A program made the translations under genes and the position numbers. 64,000 nt of DNA from Thermoanaerobaculia bacterium (GTDB lineage Bacteria > Acidobacteriota > Thermoanaerobaculia > UBA5066): positions 579,791 through 643,790 of the forward strand of contig CAWFJJ010000028.1 of assembly GCA_963816185.1 (NCBI GenBank), written 5' to 3'. Below the pieces are notes generated by a model that made no database searches, was not told the origin of the DNA, and was given only the letters and a program-made list of their open reading frames with translations. The first letter of the stretch is position 1, and every line of letters begins with the position of its first letter. This document shows positions 40,459 through 64,000 of this stretch, one piece after another.

Positions 40459-41178
40459 TCACCACTCCAGCTCGGCGGGAGTGATCTTCTTCTCGTTCCG
40501 CGTCTCGGAAGCGATGCGGCCGCTCTGCATCCTCAGAACGCGGTCCGCGATCCCCGCGACGGCCGCGTTGTGCGTGATGACTGCCGTGGTCGTGCCGAGC
40601 GTCCTGTTCACCTCCACGAGGGCCTCGAGGACGATCTTTCCCGTCGCCGCGTCGAGGGCACCGGTCGGCTCGTCGCAGAGGAGCACGTCCGGCCTCTTCG
40701 CGATCGCGCGGGCGATCGCGACGCGCTGCTGCTCGCCGCCCGAAAGCTGCGCGGGGAAGTGGTCGAGCCGGGCCCCGAGGCCTACGAGGCGCAGACAATC
40801 GGCGGGGTCAAGCGGGTTCGAGGCGATCTCCGTCACGAGCGCGACGTTTTCCCGCGCAGTGAGGCTGGGGATCAGGTTGTAGAACTGGAACACGAATCCC
40901 ACATGCTCGCGGCGAAAGCGGGTCCTCTCCTTGTCGTCCGCGGTCGTGAGGTCGTGGTCGAAGAAAAGAACCGTCCCGCTCGTCGGGACGTCGAGGCCGC
41001 CAAGGATGTTGAGGAGCGTCGACTTGCCGCCGCCGGAGGGGCCGAGGAGGACGAGGAACTCCCCACGGTGGATCTCGAGGTCGGTGGAGCGAAGCGCGTG
41101 CACCTCCACTTCGCCGGTCTTGTAGACCTTGGTGAGGGCCCGCGCGCGCAGAACCGGCGCCTCGACCACCTGAACCAA
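40459..41178 (-). CDS. ABC transporter ATP-binding protein (LolD/MacB-like)
   Basis: [29 protein letters not shown]. Confidence 0.95.
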
Positions 41179-45632: not shown

Positions 45633-48224
<2,592 letters not shown>

Positions 48225-53697: not shown

Positions 53698-55425
53698 TCA
53701 GCCCAGCTTTCCGAGCCAGAAGTCCAGCTCCTTCTTCTTGTCGCCCGAGAGAAATTCGTCCTGCCAGCTCTCGTCGTCCCGCAGGCCCTTCCACATCGTA
53801 GACGTCGAGGCGGCGCGGAGACCGCCGCTCGACTTCCTTGCGAGAGCCGCGTTGTGCCGCGACTTGTAGTGGCCGTAGATGCCGAGGACGTTCACGGCGT
53901 ACTCCGCCGCGAGGCCGGGCGCGTTCTCGACGAGAATGAGGTTGTCGTCGTTCTTCCCGCTCGCCTTCGGCCCGAGGTTGTGCGATCCCGTCATCACGAC
54001 CGGGTGCGGCCCGAACGGGTCGACGAGAACGACCTTGCTGTGGATCATGACCATGTTGAAGCGGAACTCGTCCCGGAACCAGGCCGTCATCTGTGTCTTG
54101 GCCTCCGCCGGCAGAACGACTTCCGGATCGGGATGCACGGGCGTTCCGCGGTCGAAAAGGGTGAGGATGGGGGTCTTTCCGCCCGGATCTTCGTTCACGA
54201 CGCCGTGGATGAAGAGCTTGTCGGCCTTGAGCGCGAGGACGTCGTTCAGAAGCGAGCCCGACGGACCGGGGTTGAAGAACAGGAAGAGCACGCCCTGCCG
54301 CGCGCCCTGGATCAGCTTGCGAGCGTCGGCGAGGTCCACGAGCCCGTTGCACGGCGCGTTCCACGCGGTGACGCCGGCGGAGCCGAGGCGCACGTGGGCC
54401 GGAATGGAGCCCTGCTGCGCGAGCGAGGGGGGATAGCCGCCGCCCGCGGCCGCGAGCGAGTCCCAACGCGCCTTGTAAGCCGCCGCGAGCCCCGCATCGT
54501 CGACGAGGATTCCGTTGTTCACCTGCGTGCAAAGACCCGTCACTGTCCAGTTCGTGCTGCCGGTCCACACGCTCTTCGGAGCGCCGTCCGTCCCGCCGAA
54601 GACGACGAACTTGTTATGGGCGAAGTGCGGGCTCCCGACGAGGCGGTCGCGGAGGTCGATCTTCTTCGCAGCCTTCAACTGCACGCGGATGCCCGCGTTC
54701 TCGTCGGGGACCGCTGGTTTTCCTTTCGAGGCAGGCTTGTACGCTCCCGAGCCGAGGAGGAGATGGCACTTCTTTCCGAGCGCCGTGAGGGCCGGGATCA
54801 GCTCCGGGTCGTTCAGCTCGTACAGCGCGGCCCAGATTTCGACGCCTGAGGTTTTCGCCCGCGCGAGGAGTGCGAGCATCTCGTCGCGGAGACGGCCGCC
54901 CAGGAACTTCCGGTCCTTCGCGCTCGGATCCTGGATGTCCCGCCGAAGCTGAGCGACGGGGCCGCCCGGCGCGCCGGAAAGGAGGCGGGCGAGCCACTGC
55001 GAAGCGACGATGCCGCGGTTGAAGAACGCCGAAAAACCGGGCGTCTGTCCCGTCTTCACCTCGGCCCAGGCGCTCCAGTCGCTGCACTGCGAGTCCGGCG
55101 CGCGCTTCAGGCTGCCGGCCTTCCCGAGCATCGGGACGACGCGGTACTGAACGGACGCCGCGTCGCGGGCGGAGTAATCCGTCCAGAGGAAGCGTTGCAC
55201 GGGCCATTCCGTGCTCGGCCGCTGCTGGCCGCTCTGGGCCGCGGCGTCGCCCGCGAACCCGACCCACGTCGGCAGGACGGACGGCGTGATCTTCCCCTGC
55301 GCGTCCCGCGCGCGGCGGTCGAGCGCAAAACCCCGGCAGCCGGGGATGCGGGCCGCCGCCTGCCACACGATGGTGGCGTCGTCGCTGTTCGTGTAGACGC
55401 GCAGGTCGATGGCCGTTTTCGGCAT
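53698..55425 (-). CDS. Phospholipase D-like domain protein
   Basis: HNKFVV...WTGSTN and HSKVVLVD...TGSHN motifs. Confidence 0.85.
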   Translation of the reverse strand: MPKTAIDLRVYTNSDDATIVWQAAARIPGCRGFALDRRARDAQGKITPSVLPTWVGFAGDAAAQSGQQRPSTEWPVQRFLWTDYSARDAASVQYRVVPMLGKAGSLKRAPDSQCSDWSAWAEVKTGQTPGFSAFFNRGIVASQWLARLLSGAPGGPVAQLRRDIQDPSAKDRKFLGGRLRDEMLALLARAKTSGVEIWAALYELNDPELIPALTALGKKCHLLLGSGAYKPASKGKPAVPDENAGIRVQLKAAKKIDLRDRLVGSPHFAHNKFVVFGGTDGAPKSVWTGSTNWTVTGLCTQVNNGILVDDAGLAAAYKARWDSLAAAGGGYPPSLAQQGSIPAHVRLGSAGVTAWNAPCNGLVDLADARKLIQGARQGVLFLFFNPGPSGSLLNDVLALKADKLFIHGVVNEDPGGKTPILTLFDRGTPVHPDPEVVLPAEAKTQMTAWFRDEFRFNMVMIHSKVVLVDPFGPHPVVMTGSHNLGPKASGKNDDNLILVENAPGLAAEYAVNVLGIYGHYKSRHNAALARKSSGGLRAASTSTMWKGLRDDESWQDEFLSGDKKKELDFWLGKLG

Positions 55426-55585: not shown

Positions 55586-55660
55586 GCGGGTGTAGTTCAG
55601 CGGTAGAACGTCAGCTTCCCAAGCTGGATGTCGTGGGTTCGAGCCCCATCACCCGCTCCA
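55586..55660 (+). tRNA. tRNA-Gly (anticodon CCC)
   Basis: GCGGGTG/CACCCGC acceptor stem, loop TTCCCAA, GGTTCGAG T-loop, encoded CCA. Confidence 0.95.
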
Positions 55661-56949
55661 TTCATTCCACGCGAGTTAGCGGCACCCTCGACCCCCGCGG
55701 ATGCGACCGACTGTTCGCGTAACTGTTCCGATTGGTCCGCGTCGAGAGCCTCACGCACCGCGCGGAACGCTGCTTCGTCGGGTCTCGCGTACCTCTCCGA
55801 CATCCGCGCCGTCGTATGTCCCAAGGAGCGGGCAATGAGTTGGAGGGAGACACCTCTCGACGCCAGGCGCGAGGCGAATGAGTGCCTCAAGTCGTGCACG
55901 CGACAACGGCGCGAGATTCCGGCCAGGCGCTTCGCCGTCCCGAAGTACCTCAAGAACGTCGAGAGCGAGTACGGCGTCTTCTCCGGCGTCCTGAACACCA
56001 GAGTCGAGAACGGGAACTTCTTGCGCGTGTCCTCGAGGGCTGCTTTGCAGGCCGACGACAGGGGGACGACCGACTCGACACCCGTCTTCTTTCTCGGCAG
56101 ACGGACCCAGCCGCCCTTCAGATCGACGGAGGGCCACTCCAAGGCGAGGAGGTCACTCCGGCTGAGCCCTGTCTCGAGGGCGACCACGAAGAGGATCTTG
56201 GCGGCCCGGAAGTGCTCGAAGTGAAAACGCGCCGATTCCCCATCCGGCCGACGCCCGCCCCCGAATGAGCGCGGCGCTCCGAAATGAGGGCTCGCGGCTA
56301 CCGTGCCTTTCGAGCGCCTCGCCTCGAGGTCCCGCCGAAAAGCCTCCTCGTCATCGAACGCAGCCAGAAAAGCGTGACGCTCCTCGGTCGAGAGCTCCAG
56401 CTCCAGGCGATCCTCACGCTCAATCGGAAGTCGTCCGCGAATCGGGTACGCGGACAGCTCACCGCGGTCAACCGCGTCTCGCAGATACTTCCTGAGGATC
56501 GCGAGGGCCTGGTTGATCGCTGCGGCGGAGTAGGGACGGCGCTCGCCGCTGCCTGCGACCTTGTAGCCGTTGAGCTTCAGGTTCCCGACAAGATCCCGAA
56601 CCATGGCCGCGTTGAGCTTCGAGAGCGGAACATGGCCGAGAAACGGAAGGATGCGGATTCTGAGGACGTCGGCCTCCATTTGTCGGGTGCGCTCCGAGAC
56701 CCGCGCGCCCATCGTTGAGGCGTAGCGCTCGACATACTGCGCGAGGGTAAGGTTCTGGCGGTCCCACCCGCCTGAGAGCACCGAGTCCCGGAACGCTTTC
56801 CACTTCGCGAGGGCGTCTGCGCGCGATGAAGCGAAAGTCCAGCGCCGCCGACGCCGCCGGGACTTCGTACCTGGGACGACCACCTCGAAGACAGCTCGAC
56901 CGCTCTTCGGATTCCACTTGAATCCCGGGACGACCTGTTGCGCTTTCAT
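55597..56949 (-). CDS. Tyrosine recombinase/integrase
   Basis: ETGLSRSDLLALEW, HDLRHSFAS, LGHT....ERYA; stop codon lies inside the tRNA. Confidence 0.9.
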   Translation of the reverse strand: MKAQQVVPGFKWNPKSGRAVFEVVVPGTKSRRRRRRWTFASSRADALAKWKAFRDSVLSGGWDRQNLTLAQYVERYASTMGARVSERTRQMEADVLRIRILPFLGHVPLSKLNAAMVRDLVGNLKLNGYKVAGSGERRPYSAAAINQALAILRKYLRDAVDRGELSAYPIRGRLPIEREDRLELELSTEERHAFLAAFDDEEAFRRDLEARRSKGTVAASPHFGAPRSFGGGRRPDGESARFHFEHFRAAKILFVVALETGLSRSDLLALEWPSVDLKGGWVRLPRKKTGVESVVPLSSACKAALEDTRKKFPFSTLVFRTPEKTPYSLSTFLRYFGTAKRLAGISRRCRVHDLRHSFASRLASRGVSLQLIARSLGHTTARMSERYARPDEAAFRAVREALDADQSEQLREQSVASAGVEGAANSRGMNGAGDGARTHDIQLGKLTFYR

Positions 56950-57188
56950 TCCATCACCCTGGCCGTCGCCGCAATCTTAGTCGCGTTCGCCTTCCGGAAG
57001 TTGAAGACAGGTCGCCGGTCAGCCAGCGTCCGAATGTACACGTCGACCTCCTCCTCGGGGTACGCCACGCGAGTCGCCGAGATGTGAATCCACCCCTTCG
57101 GCCCCTTCCCCTTGCACCGCCACACCGCCAGCGTCTGGGTCTTGATGCCCAGCCGACGAGCGACGACGGAGGAGGGGATGTAGTTCAC
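56946..57188 (-). CDS. HTH excisionase/AlpA-like protein
   Basis: VARRLGIKTQTLAVWRCKGKGP...RVAY; coupled to both int and rep. Confidence 0.75.
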   Translation of the reverse strand: MNYIPSSVVARRLGIKTQTLAVWRCKGKGPKGWIHISATRVAYPEEEVDVYIRTLADRRPVFNFRKANATKIAATARVME

Positions 57189-58357
57189 GCGGTGGCTCCC
57201 CCCCGTCTTGAAGGCCGTTGGGCCGGTCGTGGCGCCGGACGCACGGCGCGACGCCCGTTTTTTTCCTCCGCCGCCCACCGAACGGGCCAGTGCCGGACGC
57301 GGTCCTCCGCCGAAACGCCAGCGAGGAGCATCTCGACGCGGTTGGCCGTCTTCACGGAGGTGCCTCCGGCACCCCGAGAGCGGGCGGCCCGGCATTTCCC
57401 TCGATGCCACGCGAACGCGGTGAGGTAGTTGTCCGCCGTCAATGCCTTCCCGCGGTGCTTCCATCCCTGCGCCCCGAAGTACTCCAGAAACTCCGCGAAC
57501 TCTTCCTTAGTCGCCGTGCTTCCGTTTTTTTCGGCCGCGCGGATGAGCTGCTCGCAGGTCGGTGGGACGAAGGGCGGCTCCTCGCTCTCGTCGGTCCCCC
57601 CTCTCAAGGAATCTCCCGCGCCGCCGCCGCCGGAGCCCGAAGCGAAGGCGGCGAGCGGCGGCGCGGTTCCCTCCCCTCCCCCCGGTCCCCTCTCCTCTCC
57701 CGGTGTCTGTGTAGGAGTCGGAGTCGGAATCGGAGTCGGAGTCGGAGACGCGCGCGCGTCGCGCACGCGCGAGGGACTGTTACCCGAACCATTCTCGAAA
57801 CCGTTACCCGAACCGTTCGGCAGACCGCTTGCGTCGCTCGATGCGTTGGGTGTGCCGGAGGGCGCCTGAGGGCTGGGGCCGAGGAGCTCGGCCCATCGCC
57901 CACCGAACCACCCGAGCCACTCCTTCCCGTCCTTCTTTGCCTGCTCCTGGGCACGCCTCTCCGCGAGTGCACAGGCCGCGGCCGTCGCGTCGCGAAGCGC
58001 CTTGTGGGCGGTTGTCTTCACCTCGCACGGGGGAATCTCATCCAGCACCTTGCTCCAGGAGCGAATGGTGTTCGGGTTCGCTGGCGGGTCGTCCTCAACC
58101 GCGGACGGCAGGAACACGACCCGGCGCTCGAAGTCCGCCGCAACCAGACCCCTGGCCTCGAGCTCCGCGACGCACCCCCTGAACGTTTCCGGTGTCGTCT
58201 CTGACGCTTCGGCAAGCGCGGCAGGACCGCCACGAAAGAGCCCTGGTGCGGTCGTGCGGTGCGGCCCGAGGAGCAGGGAAAAGTAGACGACCTTCGCTTC
58301 GGCGGAGAGCCTCATGAGCCGGTCGAGGATCGTCACCGCGACGCGCGCGTGCCTCAT
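57185..58357 (-). CDS. Phage-type replication initiator (replisome organiser-like)
   Basis: N-terminal wHTH-like region (LLLGPH...G...ELE.RGL, PPANPN..W), low-complexity repeat linker, C-terminal F.EYF..GWK. Confidence 0.65.
   Translation of the reverse strand: MRHARVAVTILDRLMRLSAEAKVVYFSLLLGPHRTTAPGLFRGGPAALAEASETTPETFRGCVAELEARGLVAADFERRVVFLPSAVEDDPPANPNTIRSWSKVLDEIPPCEVKTTAHKALRDATAAACALAERRAQEQAKKDGKEWLGWFGGRWAELLGPSPQAPSGTPNASSDASGLPNGSGNGFENGSGNSPSRVRDARASPTPTPIPTPTPTQTPGEERGPGGGEGTAPPLAAFASGSGGGGAGDSLRGGTDESEEPPFVPPTCEQLIRAAEKNGSTATKEEFAEFLEYFGAQGWKHRGKALTADNYLTAFAWHRGKCRAARSRGAGGTSVKTANRVEMLLAGVSAEDRVRHWPVRWAAEEKNGRRAVRPAPRPAQRPSRRGGATA
57779..57826. repeat. Four tandem 12-bp iteron-like units inside the rep gene
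   Basis: GTTACCCGAACC ATTCTCGAAACC GTTACCCGAACC GTTCGGCAGACC. Confidence 0.55.
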
Positions 58358-58574
58358 GGCGCCAGCTCCCGTTGCGTCCTACGGCGCGACTTGGAGGGCG
58401 ATGAAAGGAACTCAGCCATCGGCGCAGTTCGGCGACTTCGTAGAGAACACGCCGACCCACACGAACAACGTTTGGTCCCCCACCGCTGCGCCGGAGCTTC
58501 CGATACGTGTGCCGAGAGACGTCGGTCAGAAGCTCAGCGCCTACTTCATCGACTGTGATCGGCTCCCGCTCCAT
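58354..58574 (-). CDS. HTH (AlpA/excisionase-like) protein; 3' end probably frameshifted
   Basis: VSRHTYRKLRRSGGGP..VRVGRRVLY...L..WL; GGAGG RBS. Confidence 0.6.
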
Positions 58575-58663
58575 CGCGCCTCCAGGTCGCCGTATATCCG
58601 GCGGTCGCTGGAAGAATCGCGGTGGAGCGCCCAGGCTTCAAGGGAGGGTGAGGAGTAATTCGG

Positions 58664-59560
58664 TCAATTACTCCGCGGAGGCCGAGCCTCCCATCGCGCA
58701 CGGTCTTTGATTCTCTTGAGCCAAGCGACCGCGGCGCCGACCTTCACCTTTTCCTCTCCAGTCTCGTACTTGAACATCCACGCGGCCGCCAGTTGCGCGG
58801 GCGTGCCCTTCTCTCCCCGCAGCGCGCGTTCCGTCAACGCTGCCAGCGTCTCGTGGAAGAGAGGAACCTTCGTCGCGTACCAATTCATGCCGTCCCTGAA
58901 GAACTCATCTCCCTCCGCGAGGGGAAGTGACGGCCTATTGACGCTGATCACATCCAAAGGCTTCCCTTCACGCCCCTGCATACGCCCCAGCTTCAACGCC
59001 TCTTGAATCGCCGCTTCGTACTGCTCGGCGAGGGATATGAGGATCCGGTCGTGGAACGCCATGGCTGTCGTTCTGGGCGCCCTTCTTCCTCTCGGCCGCG
59101 CCGGCGGCCGCAGCGCGTCCAGAAACGCGTTCAACTGCCGTCCGAGAATCCAGAATCCGCGCGGAGGGTCATCGGCAATCGCGCGTCTCCACCTCTCTAT
59201 GATCGTCTGCACCGAGGGAGATCGCCACGCAGTACCGTTCTCGCCCTTGATGAGGGCAACAGGATCCTCGGTCAGAAGCCGCGGATTCAGAAAGTAGTAC
59301 TCCTCGGCGCGTGCACTCAGCTCAAGAACTTCTTCAGGTCCGCGAAAGGCGCCCGTCGGCTGTTTGGCAAGCCATATCAAGTGCTCCGCGAGCGAGAGCA
59401 CCTTCATCTGTCGTGCGAGGTCGAAGCCGAAACCAGCGGCACGGAGGTCGCGGGAGAGGGCCAGTAGTCTCTTCTCGTCTGATGACTCCCGATCTGCGTA
59501 GGCTGCCCCCGCCGTCCGTCTCCGGGCTCCTGATCGTCGAGTGTTTCGTTCTCGCTTCAT
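58664..59560 (-). CDS. Hypothetical protein
   Basis: 298-aa ORF with non-shadow composition inside the island. Confidence 0.55.
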   Translation of the reverse strand: MKRERNTRRSGARRRTAGAAYADRESSDEKRLLALSRDLRAAGFGFDLARQMKVLSLAEHLIWLAKQPTGAFRGPEEVLELSARAEEYYFLNPRLLTEDPVALIKGENGTAWRSPSVQTIIERWRRAIADDPPRGFWILGRQLNAFLDALRPPARPRGRRAPRTTAMAFHDRILISLAEQYEAAIQEALKLGRMQGREGKPLDVISVNRPSLPLAEGDEFFRDGMNWYATKVPLFHETLAALTERALRGEKGTPAQLAAAWMFKYETGEEKVKVGAAVAWLKRIKDRARWEARPPRSN

Positions 59561-59717
59561 TCGACCTTGCGGGCCCTCACAACCAGAGTCTGGGCGGAAG
59601 GGCGAATCGGGAGGCCCTTCTCGAGCCGGTAGCTACTCCGGTTCTATCCGCCGACGTCAGATGTTACCGGCGTCGCTCCTCGCCGGGTGGTAGGGAAATC
59701 CACATGGATATTTCGGC

Positions 59718-61127
59718 TCAGATCACGCGACGGTGCTTCTCGATGTAGCTGTGGGCCTGTTTCGCATCGAGCAGGCGCGTGCTGTTTCCGTCACGTATGA
59801 AGAACTGATGTCCTCTATCGCCCTTGACGAAAGCCGGCTCGCGGGACGGATCTACGTCGATCATCAGGACGACCTTTGATTCCAGCGTCTCGGTCGTGAT
59901 TCGCCAGAGCGACGCGAACGAGGGGTCGATTTGACCCTCGAGAAAGTTCTCGACCTGAACCTTCATCTGGTCCAGCGAGTCTCCGGCCTCTCGAACGTCG
60001 TCGGCCAGGCCTCGAATCGTTCCATCGTCTGCGACACCGATGAAGACCTGGCCGCCTTTCCGCGAGTTGAGGAAGGCTGCGACCGCACCGACCACTTCTT
60101 TTCGCAGAGGCTTTCCGGGGGCGTTGGCCACGACATCCCATTGAAAGCTCGACTTGAACTCGACGACTTCAGACTCTCCAGTTCGGATTGCTTCCGCCAC
60201 GGACAGCCGCGGCCGCCGCACAGTTATTTCCCTGCGCATTACGAGGGCCAGGCTCCCGAGCCAAGCCAGAGCGGCCAGGCCCACGCTGAACAGGATGTGC
60301 TGGCGGAGCGTTGACTCCAGCACGGAGACATCCTTGTGCAGAATGACCAGCCCCTCCGCCTTCCCGGCACTCGACAGGATGGGGAAGCGGTATATGCGAA
60401 ACCGTTTTCGATCAGCAGATACTGTCTCAAACCGTGGCCGCATCTGGGCTTCAGTTGGCGGGCTCACTTGCAGCGGAACGCCTCCTGAGGCGCTCAGAAG
60501 TTCGCCCGAATCGTTGACGACGGCCCATTGGACCGCGAAATCCACGTCTCTGGCTTGGAGGTGTCTCGCATCTTTCACCGTGTCCCCGAATTTGAGGGCG
60601 GCAGTAGTCAGCCGTTGATTTGCGTCGGCCACTTTTTCCGGCTGCAAGATGCCGCACACAGCTGAGCCGTGATCCAGGTGTCGGGCGAACAGCAGCCACT
60701 TTTCTCCCAAGCTGCTGACGGCCGCAGTTGGATGCTGGTAGACGTCATCAGAGAGCGGCCGTGCCGTGCCGATGAGGCCTGGTAGGAGCCCGTCTATGTC
60801 GATCAGCGTTCCACTCCTGTCGATGATGATCCAGCCCGGAACGTCGAGATAGGCCTGGCGGAAAGGTTCGATCTGCCACGTCTCAGCAAACTTCAACTCT
60901 GATTTGAGCTGACCAGAATCCGCCCTCAATTCGTCATCGATGGAACGAGAAATCTGATAGCGAACGAAGGCGTACTGCAGGACGAAGACAACGGAGAATA
61001 GAAGCGCGAACCAGGGAAGTGCCCAGGCGAGAGATCGGAGTAGGAAAAGAGTTTTCCGACGCCTCTTGACGGGTACTGTCCGAGCGAGCCCCCCCTCAGC
61101 CGGCCCCTGTCGGTCGGAAGTGCTCAT
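59718..61127 (-). CDS. Two-TM extracytoplasmic sensor fused to a Schlafen/AlbA_2 domain
   Basis: TM1, about 220-aa loop, TM2, then GESEVVEFKSS...VAAFLNS..GG.VFIGVADDG...FFIR.G.ST. Confidence 0.8.
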   Translation of the reverse strand: MSTSDRQGPAEGGLARTVPVKRRRKTLFLLRSLAWALPWFALLFSVVFVLQYAFVRYQISRSIDDELRADSGQLKSELKFAETWQIEPFRQAYLDVPGWIIIDRSGTLIDIDGLLPGLIGTARPLSDDVYQHPTAAVSSLGEKWLLFARHLDHGSAVCGILQPEKVADANQRLTTAALKFGDTVKDARHLQARDVDFAVQWAVVNDSGELLSASGGVPLQVSPPTEAQMRPRFETVSADRKRFRIYRFPILSSAGKAEGLVILHKDVSVLESTLRQHILFSVGLAALAWLGSLALVMRREITVRRPRLSVAEAIRTGESEVVEFKSSFQWDVVANAPGKPLRKEVVGAVAAFLNSRKGGQVFIGVADDGTIRGLADDVREAGDSLDQMKVQVENFLEGQIDPSFASLWRITTETLESKVVLMIDVDPSREPAFVKGDRGHQFFIRDGNSTRLLDAKQAHSYIEKHRRVI

Positions 61128-61266
61128 GGAACTGGCTTCGCCCATCTGAGTGGCCGCCAGCCTATACCCGCCGCCGACCTTTCGTCCCCAGTCACGGGTA
61201 GCTCGCTGTCCGACCTCGCCGCGTCGCTCTATGATTGAAGCGCGTACATTGAGAAAGGGCGGAATC

Positions 61267-61418
61267 GTGTCACCTGACGCTACGGTCGAATCCCGTCGAT
61301 TCAGCAGCTTCTCAGAGATCATCTCGTTCCTATGGTCCATCGCAGACCTTCTGCGTGGGGACTACAAGCAGGCCGACTACGGAAAGGTCATCCTCCCGTT
61401 CACCGTTCTCCGCCGGCT
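61267..61418 (+). pseudogene. hsdM: Type I R-M HsdM N-terminal fragment
   Basis: [32 protein letters not shown]. Confidence 0.85.
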
Positions 61419-61823
61419 CCGAAATGGCGAGGCATCGTCGATCTCAGGGGCGGTTGACATAGGGAGCCGGAAGGGGAAGGGATGACGAGGCCCCGCTCTC
61501 CGAGATCATCGAGATCCTGAACGACCGCTTCGGGACGAACTTCACGAAGGCCGACCAACTCTTCTTCGATCAGGTCATCGAGAAAGCCGCGACCGACGAG
61601 GAGGTTCAACAGAAAGCCGGCGCGAACGTCTTCGACAATTTCGCGCTATCGATCAAGGACCGCGTGCTCGACCTGATGATCGACAGAATGGACGAGAACA
61701 AGGAGCTCCTGTCTGGTCATGAACGAGCCAGAGTTCCAGCAGGTCGTCTTCAAGGAGCTGGCGAAGAAAATCTATGAGGGGGCCGGCGGAGCATCAGCGA
61801 GCGCCAAGGGGACGGGGTCGTAG
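61419..61823 (+). pseudogene. hsdR: Type I R-M HsdR C-terminal fragment (frameshifted)
   Basis: APLSEIIEILNDRFGTNFTKADQLFFDQ...AN..DNF...RMDENKE...EFQ....K.IYE. Confidence 0.75.
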
Positions 61824-62612
61824 CTGTTCGTCGCCTGTCTAGATCTCTCGATTCGAGTCATGCGTTCTTGGTGACTACAACCGGCCCTTCTGGAAAACTA
61901 CGAGCCATCGGTATGGACACCCCACATTACGGCTCTTGCTCCAAGAGCGAGAAGATCTCCTCACCCTTGCCTCGAAAGCACCTCGGCGCCGACGCGGGCG
62001 GAAACTTCTGCTCAATGGAGGGGCAGCAATGATGAACCACCCAAACACAGCCGCCCTCCCTCCATCTCGAACGAACCGACAGGCTTTGTTTGCATGGACT
62101 GGCGACCGGGCGAAGAGTTCGGATCGATGCTCAGCTCCGACAGAAACACAGCAACCTTGACCGATTGCCCTGAGGGGGCTGGGTTGAGCCAAGACTACGC
62201 CCGGATCGAGCGCCTGCTCCTCGATGGTCGTCGCGTACCACGGCGTGTGGATCTGGCAGGCGAGTGTAAGGCCTTCAACAATGGGGGCGGGGCGACCCAG
62301 CTGCAAGAAGCGATTTGCAGGCGTCGAGGCAGGGTCAACATGGCCGGAAACGTATGGAATCGAAGGCGACGTGCCAGAGTCCGCTCATGCAGGCTCAGTT
62401 TCACGGCCCCAGCAAGGCCTCGACACGCGACGTAAACGTCCTCTCTACCTGTACCAACGGAGGTAAAGCACTTCCAGGATGCGGCGCGCCGCTTTAGGGA
62501 AGGTGGGACTCCGAAGCGAATCGCTCGTTCTGGCATCTGAAGACACCTACGATACTGCTTCAGCGCCGAGCGCATCGAGTCCGCTAACCTGCCCGATCTG
62601 GCAGCAGAGGCT

Positions 62613-62677
62613 CTACGCGGCGGCGAGGATCCGATAGACGGTCGGCCGCGAGAGGCCCACGGCGCGGGCGACCCGCG
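62613..62677 (-). pseudogene. Orphan 3' fragment of a serine resolvase (HTH tail)
   Basis: Translates as RVARAVGLSRPTVYRILAAA*, paralogous to 63362-63420. Confidence 0.6.
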
Positions 62678-62691
62678 TTACGCTCTTCCCT

Positions 62692-63277
62692 TCACGAATG
62701 GGCCGGAACGCGCGACTCGAGGAGCTTGGTGAACTGCGACAGCCAGACCGGATGCGCCGGCCAGGCGGGCGCCGTGACAAGATTGCCTTCCGTCACGGCC
62801 TGATCCACGGCGATCTCGGCGTAATGACCCCCGGCCCGCGTCACCTCCGGGCCGACCGCCGGATAGGCCGAGCACTTCCTCCCTTCGAGCACTCCGGCAG
62901 CCGCGAGAATCTGCGCGCCGTGGCAGATGGCCGCGATCGGCTTTCCGCTCGGTCATGAAGTGGCGCACGATCTCGAGGACGCGCGGATTCAGCCGGAGGT
63001 ACTCCGGCGCGCGCCCTCCCGGGATGACGAGCGCATCGTAGCCGCCCTCCTTCACCTCGTCGAAGGAGAAGTTCAGGGCGAAGTTGTGGCCCGGCTTCTC
63101 GCTGTAGGTCTGGTCCCCCTCGAAGTCGTGAACGGCCGTCCGCACCTTCTCGCCCGCCTTCTTCCCCGGGCAGACGGCGTGGACGGCGTGCCCGAGCATC
63201 TGGAGCGCCTGGAAAGGCACCATCACCTCGTAGTCCTCGACGAAGTCGCCGACGAGCATCAGGATCTTCTTCGACAT
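62692..63277 (-). CDS. pfpI: DJ-1/PfpI family protein (frameshift near 62940)
   Basis: [34 protein letters not shown], then ICHG and [11 protein letters not shown]; strong RBS. Confidence 0.85.
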
Positions 63278-63361
63278 GGTGGTCCTCCTCCTCGTTTCCA
63301 CTTCAGTATGTACCGGCCGGTTTACATTCAGCCTGCGTACGGTCAGCGATCGCCGAAGGCG

Positions 63362-63958
63362 CTACGCAGCGAGGACGCGGTAGACGGTCGGGCGCGAGAG
63401 CCCGACGGCGCGGGCGATCTGCGTCACGCCCTTCCCTTCGCCCCTGAGGCGCCTCACCTGGGCGGCCTGTTCCGGCTTGACCTTGACGGCCGTATGAACG
63501 CCCGTGGGTCGGCCAAGGCGAACTCCACGCTCCCTGGCCGCTTCAATGCCCGGCGAGGACTCGCTCAGCGCGGACCTCAGTTTCGTACTCGGCGACGCCC
63601 GCGAGAACGTGTGCCATGAGCTTTCCGGCTGGCGTGCCGAGATCGAGTCCGTCGCGTAGGCTGACGAGGTTGACCTTCCGGGCGGCCAGCCTCAGCGAAC
63701 AATGTCGAAAGGCCGGCACATGTGCGTCCGAGGCGGTCCAGACGCCACACGATGACCGTCTTGACCTCACCGGCTCGGATCGCAGCTTCGAGCTTCTGCC
63801 AACCAGGACGAACCATCGTGCGGCCGGTGAACCTGTCGCGGAAGACCTTCGCCTCCTCGAGGCCGTTGGCGGCGAGGTAACGCTTGATGTCGGGCTCCTG
63901 GGAGGCGGTGTCCTGGCGCTTCGGAGGAAACTCGGATGTAAACGGCGGTGGTGCTCAT
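63362..63958 (-). CDS. Serine recombinase/resolvase (multiple frameshifts; may be a pseudogene)
   Basis: YIRVSS, VWRLDRLGR, GKLMAHVLAGVAEYE, C-terminal HTH GLSRPTVYR. Confidence 0.8.
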
Positions 63959-64000
63959 GCCCCATAGGTAGGCCCCAGCCCTTGTCCTGTCAAGTGAAAT

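Follow-up and report, generated by a model that had tools for sequence, protein, structure and literature searches.

A predicted membrane receptor joining a tandem-PDC sensor to a Schlafen/AlbA_2 nuclease domain: a candidate signal-gated tRNase in a bacterial genomic island

Introduction

Prokaryotic Schlafens were published in 2025-26 as antiphage tRNases, so the general idea of bacterial Schlafen domains as RNases that are gated by a sensor and act against phages, which was also part of a first-pass annotation of the DNA described here, is not new (PMC13056530, PMC13462974). The survey of Perez Taboada et al. (Nat Microbiol 2026, PMC13056530) covers 5,930 prokaryotic Schlafens (pSlfns) in 55 domain compositions, all with Ex4(E/D)xK, the catalytic motif of the antiphage pSlfn tRNases. 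A defence gene lies within 10 kb of 69.6% of them, and the authors suggest that the remaining 30.4%, which have no defence neighbours, may be non-immune. Phage protection was reported for a DUF262-Slfn and for an Ig-like-Slfn, the latter a phage-activated tRNase. The supplement of the survey lists a class 'Cache.pSlfn' (pSlfn12) of 25 proteins from Desulfovibrionales, Brachyspirales, Puniceicoccales and other groups, with no experimental characterisation given there, and the words membrane, transmembrane, periplasm and Cache do not occur in its main text. Here we describe a gene of related architecture, encoding the protein P0001, which lies in 64,000 nucleotides of a Thermoanaerobaculia bacterium (assembly GCA_963816185.1, contig CAWFJJ010000028.1, positions 579,791 to 643,790); this whole stretch is called the window below.

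Other described systems share single aspects with P0001. CbCash, a Csx15-Schlafen effector of type III CRISPR systems (PDB 9ylu), cleaves tRNA with E17, D22, K24 and Mg2+ and is activated by cA4, which rearranges the protein so that its Schlafen sites become exposed. Over half of the Schlafens associated with defence have links to restriction-modification (R-M) or other nucleases, and some mammalian Schlafens lack the catalytic residues (PMC13462974). One Schlafen was validated in a study in which small serine recombinases served to mark defence loci (PMC13552941), and SNIPE is a membrane-bound antiphage nuclease that cleaves injected phage DNA (PMC13190303). Since pSlfn12 has already been catalogued, the architecture of P0001 is not new as a class; within this catalogued and unstudied Cache-Schlafen architecture, the P0001 family stands apart as a compact variant with a tandem PDC. 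In the literature, judged largely by title and the start of the abstract, we found no description of a membrane-sensor Schlafen beyond the supplement listing. To our knowledge, the prokaryotic Schlafens studied so far all detect infection from within the cytoplasm, with a phage protein or cA4 as the signal.

Results

P0001 is predicted to span the membrane twice

The P0001 gene can be read from more than one start. Its longest open reading frame extends to 61340 and would encode 540 residues; because the extension overlaps a remnant of HsdM_N on the opposite strand and is absent from homologues, the start that gives 469 residues is reasonable. Kyte-Doolittle hydropathy finds two hydrophobic segments, TM1 and TM2 (Table 1; TM, transmembrane), and exactly two such segments stand at matching positions in 41 of the 46 aligned family members. 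The flanks of these segments are K/R-rich, with seven such residues in 1-26 and six in 298-320, which argues for an N-in/C-in topology. A full-length AlphaFold2 (AF2) model, built from five sequences, has a predicted local distance difference test score (pLDDT) of 73.8. A predicted homodimer of residues 25-469 scored 0.23 against a mark of 0.42, which is evidence neither for nor against pairing.

AlbA_2 is the sole Pfam family in P0001 at E <= 0.01. The same scan contains no HisKA or HATPase_c transmitter and no kinase, HAMP, MCP or cyclase output, and NCBIfam offers only a histidine-kinase sensor model far below threshold (22.3 bits against a cut-off of 194). On hydropathy, the AF2 models, structural alignment with VIA-align and Pfam, which together bear out the order TM, tandem PDC, TM, AlbA_2 read from the sequence in the first-pass annotation, P0001 is predicted to have the topology and folds of a one-component transmembrane receptor-nuclease.

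The output domain retains the Schlafen catalytic residues

Pfam SLFN_AlbA_2 (PF04326) matches residues 318-453 with an E value of 5.3e-16 and 59.7 bits against a gathering cut-off of 25.3, covering positions 1-117 of the 118 in the profile. With the full-length model as the Foldseek query, the best match was DIP2311 (3lmm, 4.6e-6), and the SAMD9 tRNase domain (9.5e-5), the SAMD9 DNA-binding domain with DNA (7ksp, 2.6e-4) and SLFN11 (8.5e-4) were also recovered. A profile built from 46 family members and searched against PDB sequences matched SLFN11 (7.4e-15 and 4.2e-12) and SLFN14 (5.9e-13), as well as SLFN5, SLFN12, SLFN13 and the CRISPR-associated Schlafen CbCash (7.7e-5).

In the profile alignment, gE-x4-EFK of the family falls on ESQLVEFK of human SLFN11 and GV-x-D on GVDDK, with D367 on the second D of the latter. 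Chain 7zel_A has 929 residues against the 901 that we take to be the native length of SLFN11, and thus 28 extra N-terminal residues; with this offset the human equivalents of E318, E323, K325 and D367 are E209, E214, K216 and D252, the last of which is presumably catalytic. The assignment of E209, E214 and K216 is supported by the E209A mutant entry 7zep together with the Ex4ExK motif of PMC13056530.

The acidic/Lys set picked out by the first-pass annotation, E-x4-EFK with GVADDG, is intact: the motif is invariant in the family, and position 367 is acidic in 43 of 46 members (Table 1). Since this set is invariant or nearly so among proteins that can be as little as 23% identical to P0001, catalysis is very probably retained across the family. 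By analogy with the characterised Schlafens, tRNA would be the substrate of the P0001 family and phage protection its predicted effect.

The extracytoplasmic region is predicted to adopt a PDC fold

AF2 applied to residues 52-280 (51-row alignment) gave a model with a pLDDT of 96.6 and a predicted template-modelling score (pTM) of 0.91, in which a long N-terminal helix leads into two consecutive five-stranded alpha/beta modules and then into a helix that becomes TM2. The first-pass annotation had proposed two similar subdomains from WIIIDRSGTLI (99-109) and WAVVNDSGELL (200-210), which form the opening beta-hairpins of modules 1 and 2, respectively. The similarity stands at the level of the modelled fold; because BLASTP finds no similarity between the two modules of P0001, they are alike in fold only.

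A Foldseek search of the sensor model against the PDB gave no match at E <= 0.001. At the sequence level, no Pfam Cache family (dCache_1, dCache_2, dCache_3 or sCache) matched P0001 at E <= 0.01. An exhaustive VIA-align search with the sensor model (48,161 chains, 50 matches returned) placed mostly extracytoplasmic PDC/Cache sensors at the top, with cytoplasmic PAS/LOV and unrelated domains lower. The best match was the WalK sensor (Z 11.3, root-mean-square deviation 2.8, 127 residues aligned), and further matches were CusS (Z 9.3), a PAS sensor kinase domain (9.1), CitA and Mlp24 (8.4 each), PhoQ (7.8), and KinD and LuxQ (7.5 each). Entries of dCache type reached Z 6.5-8.4 with only 102-131 of the 229 residues aligned, and no match covers more than 131. 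In these models the sensor fold is PDC; a canonical dCache packing of the two modules is not implied, and the two-module reading comes from the secondary structure of the model. Conserved polar and aromatic residues are concentrated in the first module (W84 in 44, R90 in 39, D110 in 41, E142 in 45 and W144 in 41 of 46 members), where they mark a candidate ligand pocket.

The fusion recurs in independent sources and is patchily distributed

A word-indexed search with P0001 over 5.8 billion clusters returned 30 proteins: the gene call of the window itself, four full-length relatives (79, 48, 46 and 31% identity), 24 fusions of DUF262 (GmrSD) with AlbA_2 of about 700 residues that match the C-terminal third only (28-43% identity), and one protein that matches in AlbA_2 only. 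When 1.84 billion representatives were searched exhaustively, 4,344 matches reached E <= 1e-3 and 62 of these reached E <= 1e-30; the full-length form falls into roughly 60 clusters at 50% identity. AlbA_2 is present at the C-terminus in 45 of 46 scanned candidate relatives; the lone exception, P0089, has a scrambled C-terminus. Because the architecture is conserved across independent sources, the fusion is genuine and not an assembly chimera, a possibility that the first-pass annotation had raised.

The distribution of the family is sparse. Among 185,579 species representatives, a pattern scan recovered a single full-length relative, in a metagenome-assembled genome of Verrucomicrobiia (G401). 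No match covering the sensor was present in 400 other sampled genomes of the phylum of the window, three genomes of the same genus had no match to P0001 at all, and among Verrucomicrobiota the sensor was covered in the already known G401 only, with none in 400 other sampled genomes. The gene is accessory, horizontally moved and patchy in its distribution. In public sequencing data it occurs in two soil-metagenome DNA runs of one study, at a small share (0.06), with no RNA run among those listed. In a FastTree phylogeny of the AlbA_2 domain (163 rows), 68 of 160 inner branches are unresolved and the PDC family is not one clade; the label 'other' in this tree includes fragments of the PDC-Schlafen family, and its branching is compatible with one or with several origins of membrane anchoring.

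Sensor and nuclease are each found with other partners

The TM-sensor-TM module of P0001 is also fused to a class III cyclase, in P0150 and P0173 (Guanylate_cyc at 5.9e-32 and 2.2e-20), in agreement with the earlier expectation that a sensor of this type feeds other outputs. These relatives share 28% identity with P0001 over 261 residues (E 2e-31) and were reached through the exhaustive search; the sensor by itself (residues 30-300) gave only three matches in a word-indexed search, all of them family members. On the other side, close relatives of the AlbA_2 domain are fused to Roc-COR-LRR (P0123), to a STAND-like ATPase (P0114), to DUF262/GmrSD, and to type ISP and MmeI-type restriction-methylases (P0134, P0179). 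Since the sensor occurs with swapped outputs and the AlbA_2 domain with varied partners, the sensor reads as a true signalling input and AlbA_2 as an interchangeable output or effector.

The same AlbA_2 subtype appears in further settings. P0096 (362 residues) joins it to a response-regulator receiver in the order REC-DUF5678-AlbA_2; this would-be phosphorylation-gated Schlafen output matches the CheY.pSlfn class (pSlfn18) of PMC13056530. At seven loci (L077, L078, L082, L102, L103, L048 and L064), proteins of about 270-340 residues consist of two TM helices, a short loop and the same AlbA_2 subtype, and so are minimal membrane-anchored Schlafens that lack a large sensor; they are perhaps the 'PsaK.pSlfn' class (pSlfn10, defence score 0.16) of the same survey. 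Six Verrucomicrobiota genomes encode proteins of 492-529 residues with a TM helix, a dCache-like domain of about 290 residues that matches MCP-like_PDC_1 or dCache_1, a second TM helix and AlbA_2. These dCache-Schlafens share with P0001 the AlbA_2 part alone (33% identity over 162 residues), and their sensor is different and larger.

Family members occur in mobile, defence and other contexts

The clearest context is that of a homologue with 48% identity (locus L006), which closes an hsdM-hsdS-hsdR-ygjP operon. The order there is the PADLOC candidate PDC-S14 (DUF4357), hsdM, hsdS, hsdR, a ygjP-like peptidase gene, the homologue, an unknown gene and the PADLOC candidate PDC-S54 (E 5e-129), and from hsdM to the Schlafen homologue each stop codon overlaps the following start. 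With type I R-M, PDC-S14 and PDC-S54 as known defence genes within 10 kb on either side, this locus is clearly a defence island. The peptidase gene between hsdR and the homologue (L006:7337-8092) encodes a YgjP-like (DUF45) metallopeptidase and, as it overlaps both neighbours at the stop and start codons, belongs to the same transcription unit. A homologue with 76% identity (L005) has an HNH fragment upstream.

Three of the five informative family loci have mobile or defence contexts. The synteny of the dCache-Schlafen sister class looks housekeeping-like. The 298-, 390-, 159- and 172-residue proteins of the island in the window have no homologues beside other family members, except for a weak HTH_17 match in L006. 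Since no neighbour is conserved across loci, P0001 is a single-gene system.

The gene lies in a low-GC island with scars of other systems

The gene was earlier placed in AT-richer island cargo beside a type I R-M scar, and the window agrees with this: GC is 0.59-0.61 over 58.5-62.5 kb against 0.68-0.70 upstream, a tRNA-Gly and an integrase mark the integration site, and an HsdM_N fragment adjoins the Schlafen gene (Table 1). From the integrase, the island runs through HTH_17 proteins and unknowns of 390 and 298 residues to the Schlafen gene, and beyond it through the HsdM_N remnant, about 1.2 kb with no recognisable genes, the DJ-1/PfpI gene and the serine recombinase. The end of the window is the end of the contig, so the window holds no far border of the island, and no second att copy (tRNA 3' end) was found in 55661-64000. 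With intact HsdM as the query, tblastn recovered only residues 131-161 at the remnant; an intact type I methylase is encoded elsewhere in the genome. A 74-nt direct repeat (62620-62693 and 63366-63439, 85% identity), which encodes the helix-turn-helix of the resolvase, flanks the DJ-1/PfpI gene. The broken frames of the recombinase and of the DJ-1/PfpI gene reflect either real decay or assembly frameshifts. Within 10 kb on either side of the Schlafen gene, the only known defence gene is the adjacent 34-residue MTase_I remnant.

Table 1. Positions of the features described, in the window unless a locus is named
Feature	Position	Strand	Basis
Schlafen gene P0001, TM / tandem-PDC / TM / Schlafen(AlbA_2)	59718..61127	-	469 residues, stop-free translation
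TM1 (predicted), residues 26-57, after K/R-rich cytoplasmic N-terminus	60957..61052	-	Hydropathy; helix 21-78 in AF2 model
Predicted extracytoplasmic sensor, residues 58-276, long helix and two five-stranded PDC/Cache-like modules	60300..60956	-	AF2, VIA-align, residue conservation
TM2 (predicted), residues 277-298, continuous with helix into output domain	60234..60299	-	Hydropathy and AF2 model
Predicted cytoplasmic Schlafen/AlbA_2 nuclease domain, residues 308-469	59721..60206	-	Pfam PF04326, Foldseek, family profile
Catalytic motif E318-x4-E323-F-K325	60153..60176	-	Invariant in 46/46 family members
D367, third acidic residue, in GVADDG	60027..60029	-	D 34, E 9, N 2, K 1 of 46
tRNA-Gly(CCC), island integration site	55586-55660	+	
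Tyrosine integrase of island	55597..56949	-	Phage_integrase 5.6e-26
HsdM_N remnant of type I methylase, about 34 residues, divergent from Schlafen gene	61324..61425	+	Pfam 7.9e-10; PADLOC MTase_I 1.1e-14
Frameshifted DJ-1/PfpI gene	62678-63301		
Decayed small serine recombinase, resolvase pieces in three frames	63366..63965	-	Three-frame part at 63543-63965
PLD-Slfn-TatD trios	L104:6906-11209, L106:8809-13304, L107:5094-10321, L108:868-4958		

Three further genes of the window lie on the chromosomal side of the tRNA. An 863-residue protein (45633-48224, minus strand) has an N-terminal Ser/Thr kinase domain that matches many PADLOC PD-T4-6 models, the best at 4.3e-94. Its gene is 11.5 kb from the Schlafen gene and outside the island, with its edges about 7.4 and about 10 kb to the chromosomal side of tRNA-Gly, and since kinase domains match these models readily, the match alone is no proof of defence. 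A 239-residue open reading frame (40459-41178, minus strand) matches PADLOC mad3 (1.2e-29) and mad8 (5.8e-9), components of the MADS candidate system. Directly beside tRNA-Gly, a gene at 53698-55425 (minus strand) encodes a 575-residue PLDc_2 protein; a link between this PLD-like gene and the PLD genes of the Verrucomicrobiota trios (Table 1) was considered and rejected, as the two show no significant similarity.

Discussion

We give about an even chance to the reading that P0001 is a signal-gated membrane tRNase used for defence. Under this reading, the two TM helices would place the tandem-PDC ligand-binding domain outside the cytoplasm and tether the single Schlafen/AlbA_2 domain on the cytoplasmic face, some 10-20 residues from the membrane. 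The protein would act as a dimer or oligomer, as do PDC sensors, class III cyclases and all characterised Schlafens. Single-lobe Schlafens probably pair or polymerise to form the RNA-binding groove, which the two-lobed human enzymes would form within one chain; given paired sensors on one side and the pairing of single lobes on the other, a ligand-driven shift of TM2 would form the active Schlafen pair. Once an extracytoplasmic cue is bound (candidates are a small molecule, a phage component or a product of envelope damage), TM2 would shift and turn the two Schlafen domains into an arrangement that binds RNA and has its catalytic sites exposed; the activated enzyme would cut tRNA, or other RNA, halt translation and abort or slow phage replication.

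In a narrower form of this reading, which we consider unlikely, P0001 would be an outside-in immune receptor whose tandem-PDC domain detects phage at the envelope, before or during genome entry, and signals directly to the Schlafen tRNase with no second messenger or partner. The signals considered are a tail or ejection protein, a change in the receptor complex, and a periplasmic danger or kin-lysis signal.

Several observations weigh against a gated enzyme of defence. No PADLOC model matches P0001, no HAMP or other recognised transducer lies between TM2 and the nuclease, and no experimental work on any membrane-anchored Schlafen was found in the literature. The island holds no intact defence system in the window, only scars, and none of the 55 pattern matches in viral contigs encodes a relative. 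Two of the family loci are not clearly defence contexts and have no known defence gene within 10 kb on either side: L008 has scpB upstream, and L001 has DUF4410, SUKH-1 and pheA. The published defence score of pSlfn12 is 0.36, against 0.71 for pSlfn1, 0.69 for pSlfn5 and 0.76 for pSlfn7 (PMC13056530). Published housekeeping controls lie at 0.13-0.19 defence genes per locus. In four of the six Verrucomicrobiota loci of the sister class, the order is a PLD-like lipoprotein, the dCache-Slfn and TatD, and the other two adjoin surA/mfd or other housekeeping genes; this class looks vertically inherited rather than carried as island cargo. The PLD proteins of two trio loci are 67% identical, and ftsK lies 3-5 kb from the trio in three of the four. 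We speculate that a periplasmic PLD might make the ligand sensed by the dCache domain in the conserved trio.

The same observations bear on a non-immune role, in which an environmental or envelope chemical would elicit regulated RNA cleavage that slows growth or reshapes the RNA pool, as in a stress response or dormancy. We consider this possible, if on the unlikely side. The sensor has an ordinary chemosensory PDC fold in common with cyclases, the synteny of the sister class, the low score of pSlfn12 and the scpB neighbour fit such a role, and so does the share of pSlfn genes that lack defence neighbours. Against it stand the status of the gene as island cargo here and its absence from the three genomes of the same genus, the copy within the type I R-M operon of the L006 defence island, and the fusion of the nearest AlbA_2 relatives to restriction enzymes.

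Alternatively, the PDC domain could recognise the ejection machinery or a receptor complex and the Schlafen domain could cut the entering phage DNA or RNA, in the manner of SNIPE, rather than host tRNA. The predicted closeness of the nuclease to the inner face of the membrane, the match of the AlbA_2 model to the DNA-bound SAMD9 domain and the precedent of a membrane-bound nuclease acting on injected phage DNA (PMC13190303) are in keeping with this, whereas the characterised prokaryotic Schlafens all cleave tRNA (PMC13056530, PMC13462974), P0001 has no homology to SNIPE domains, AlbA_2 being its sole Pfam match, and the lack of a neighbour conserved across loci gives no sign of a partner protein. 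We regard this alternative as improbable.

More doubtful still is a non-catalytic output, in which AlbA_2 would only bind nucleic acid and P0001 would serve as a sequestering factor or as a regulator tethered to the membrane, like ToxR and CadC. AlbA_2 domains do occur in DNA-binding proteins, the Foldseek matches to DIP2311 and to the SAMD9 DNA-binding domain with DNA point the same way, and some mammalian Schlafens have lost the catalytic residues (PMC13462974); a complete catalytic set that stays invariant or nearly so at such low identities would be hard to explain in the absence of catalysis. A silent remnant of a degraded island, with no current function in this genome, is very improbable, for although the neighbours are scars (the HsdM remnant, the frameshifted DJ-1/PfpI gene and the three-frame serine recombinase), the reading frame of P0001 is intact from end to end, aligns to homologues with no gaps or frameshifts and keeps all the conserved residues, and the frameshifts nearby may be assembly errors.

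Taken as a whole, the first-pass interpretation of P0001, an envelope-sensing one-component system with a Schlafen RNase output in defence, is partly supported. If the gated defence tRNase is real, bacteria would arm a translation-arresting RNase from the periplasm through an extracytoplasmic receptor, and the sensor-effector logic of an immune family that runs from humans to bacteria would reach into transmembrane signalling. The narrower outside-in receptor would give bacteria an equivalent of transmembrane pattern-recognition receptors, with a translation-arresting nuclease as its direct output. A stress-signalling RNase would instead represent a non-immune branch of the bacterial Schlafens, at which the low published defence score hints. 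The system is practical to study, as it is a single gene, its cyclase-output relatives could be used as reporters in the search for the ligand and its catalytic residues are clear targets for mutation.

Among described systems, P0001 most resembles the pSlfn12 proteins, which also combine one or more N-terminal Cache/PDC-type sensors with a C-terminal Schlafen in about 490-535 residues; under the domain-composition scheme of PMC13056530 its label would be Cache.Cache.pSlfn, a comparison of composition and not of the sequences of the listed members. RorSlfn5 (Ig-like sensor-Schlafen) and EcoSlfn7 (DUF262-Schlafen) likewise have a single Schlafen domain with Ex4(E/D)xK and a fused sensor or partner, and DUF262 fusions are the nearest relatives of the P0001 AlbA_2 domain outside the family. 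RorSlfn5 and EcoSlfn7 both reside in the cytoplasm and respond there to a phage protein or DNA, whereas the sensor of P0001 is predicted to lie outside the membrane. CbCash is similar in its Schlafen domain and differs in being soluble, with no membrane part, in its activation by cA4 and in forming dodecamers and filaments (PMC13462974).

The tRNase domains of human SLFN11, SLFN13 and SLFN14 and of SAMD9 have the same fold and the same catalytic residues as P0001. These eukaryotic enzymes carry two AlbA_2-like lobes per chain together with helicase and other domains, while P0001 has a single lobe and would therefore have to pair with another copy. The extracytoplasmic PDC/Cache sensors of histidine kinases, chemoreceptors and cyclases (WalK, CusS, CitA, PhoQ, Mlp24 and KinD) correspond to that of P0001 in fold and in membrane topology. 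SNIPE also places a nuclease at the inner membrane, with unrelated domains and with DNA as its target (PMC13190303). In its context, the homologue in the type I R-M operon of L006 recalls the anticodon nucleases PrrC and RloC, in which a tRNase stands in or beside such an operon. There, the latent tRNase of PrrC or RloC is a second line of defence at type I R-M loci. The analogy is one of context only, as PrrC is not homologous: it is cytoplasmic and has an ABC-ATPase domain and another nuclease domain, neither of which has a Pfam or PADLOC match in P0001, whose tRNase would instead be joined to a sensor across the membrane.

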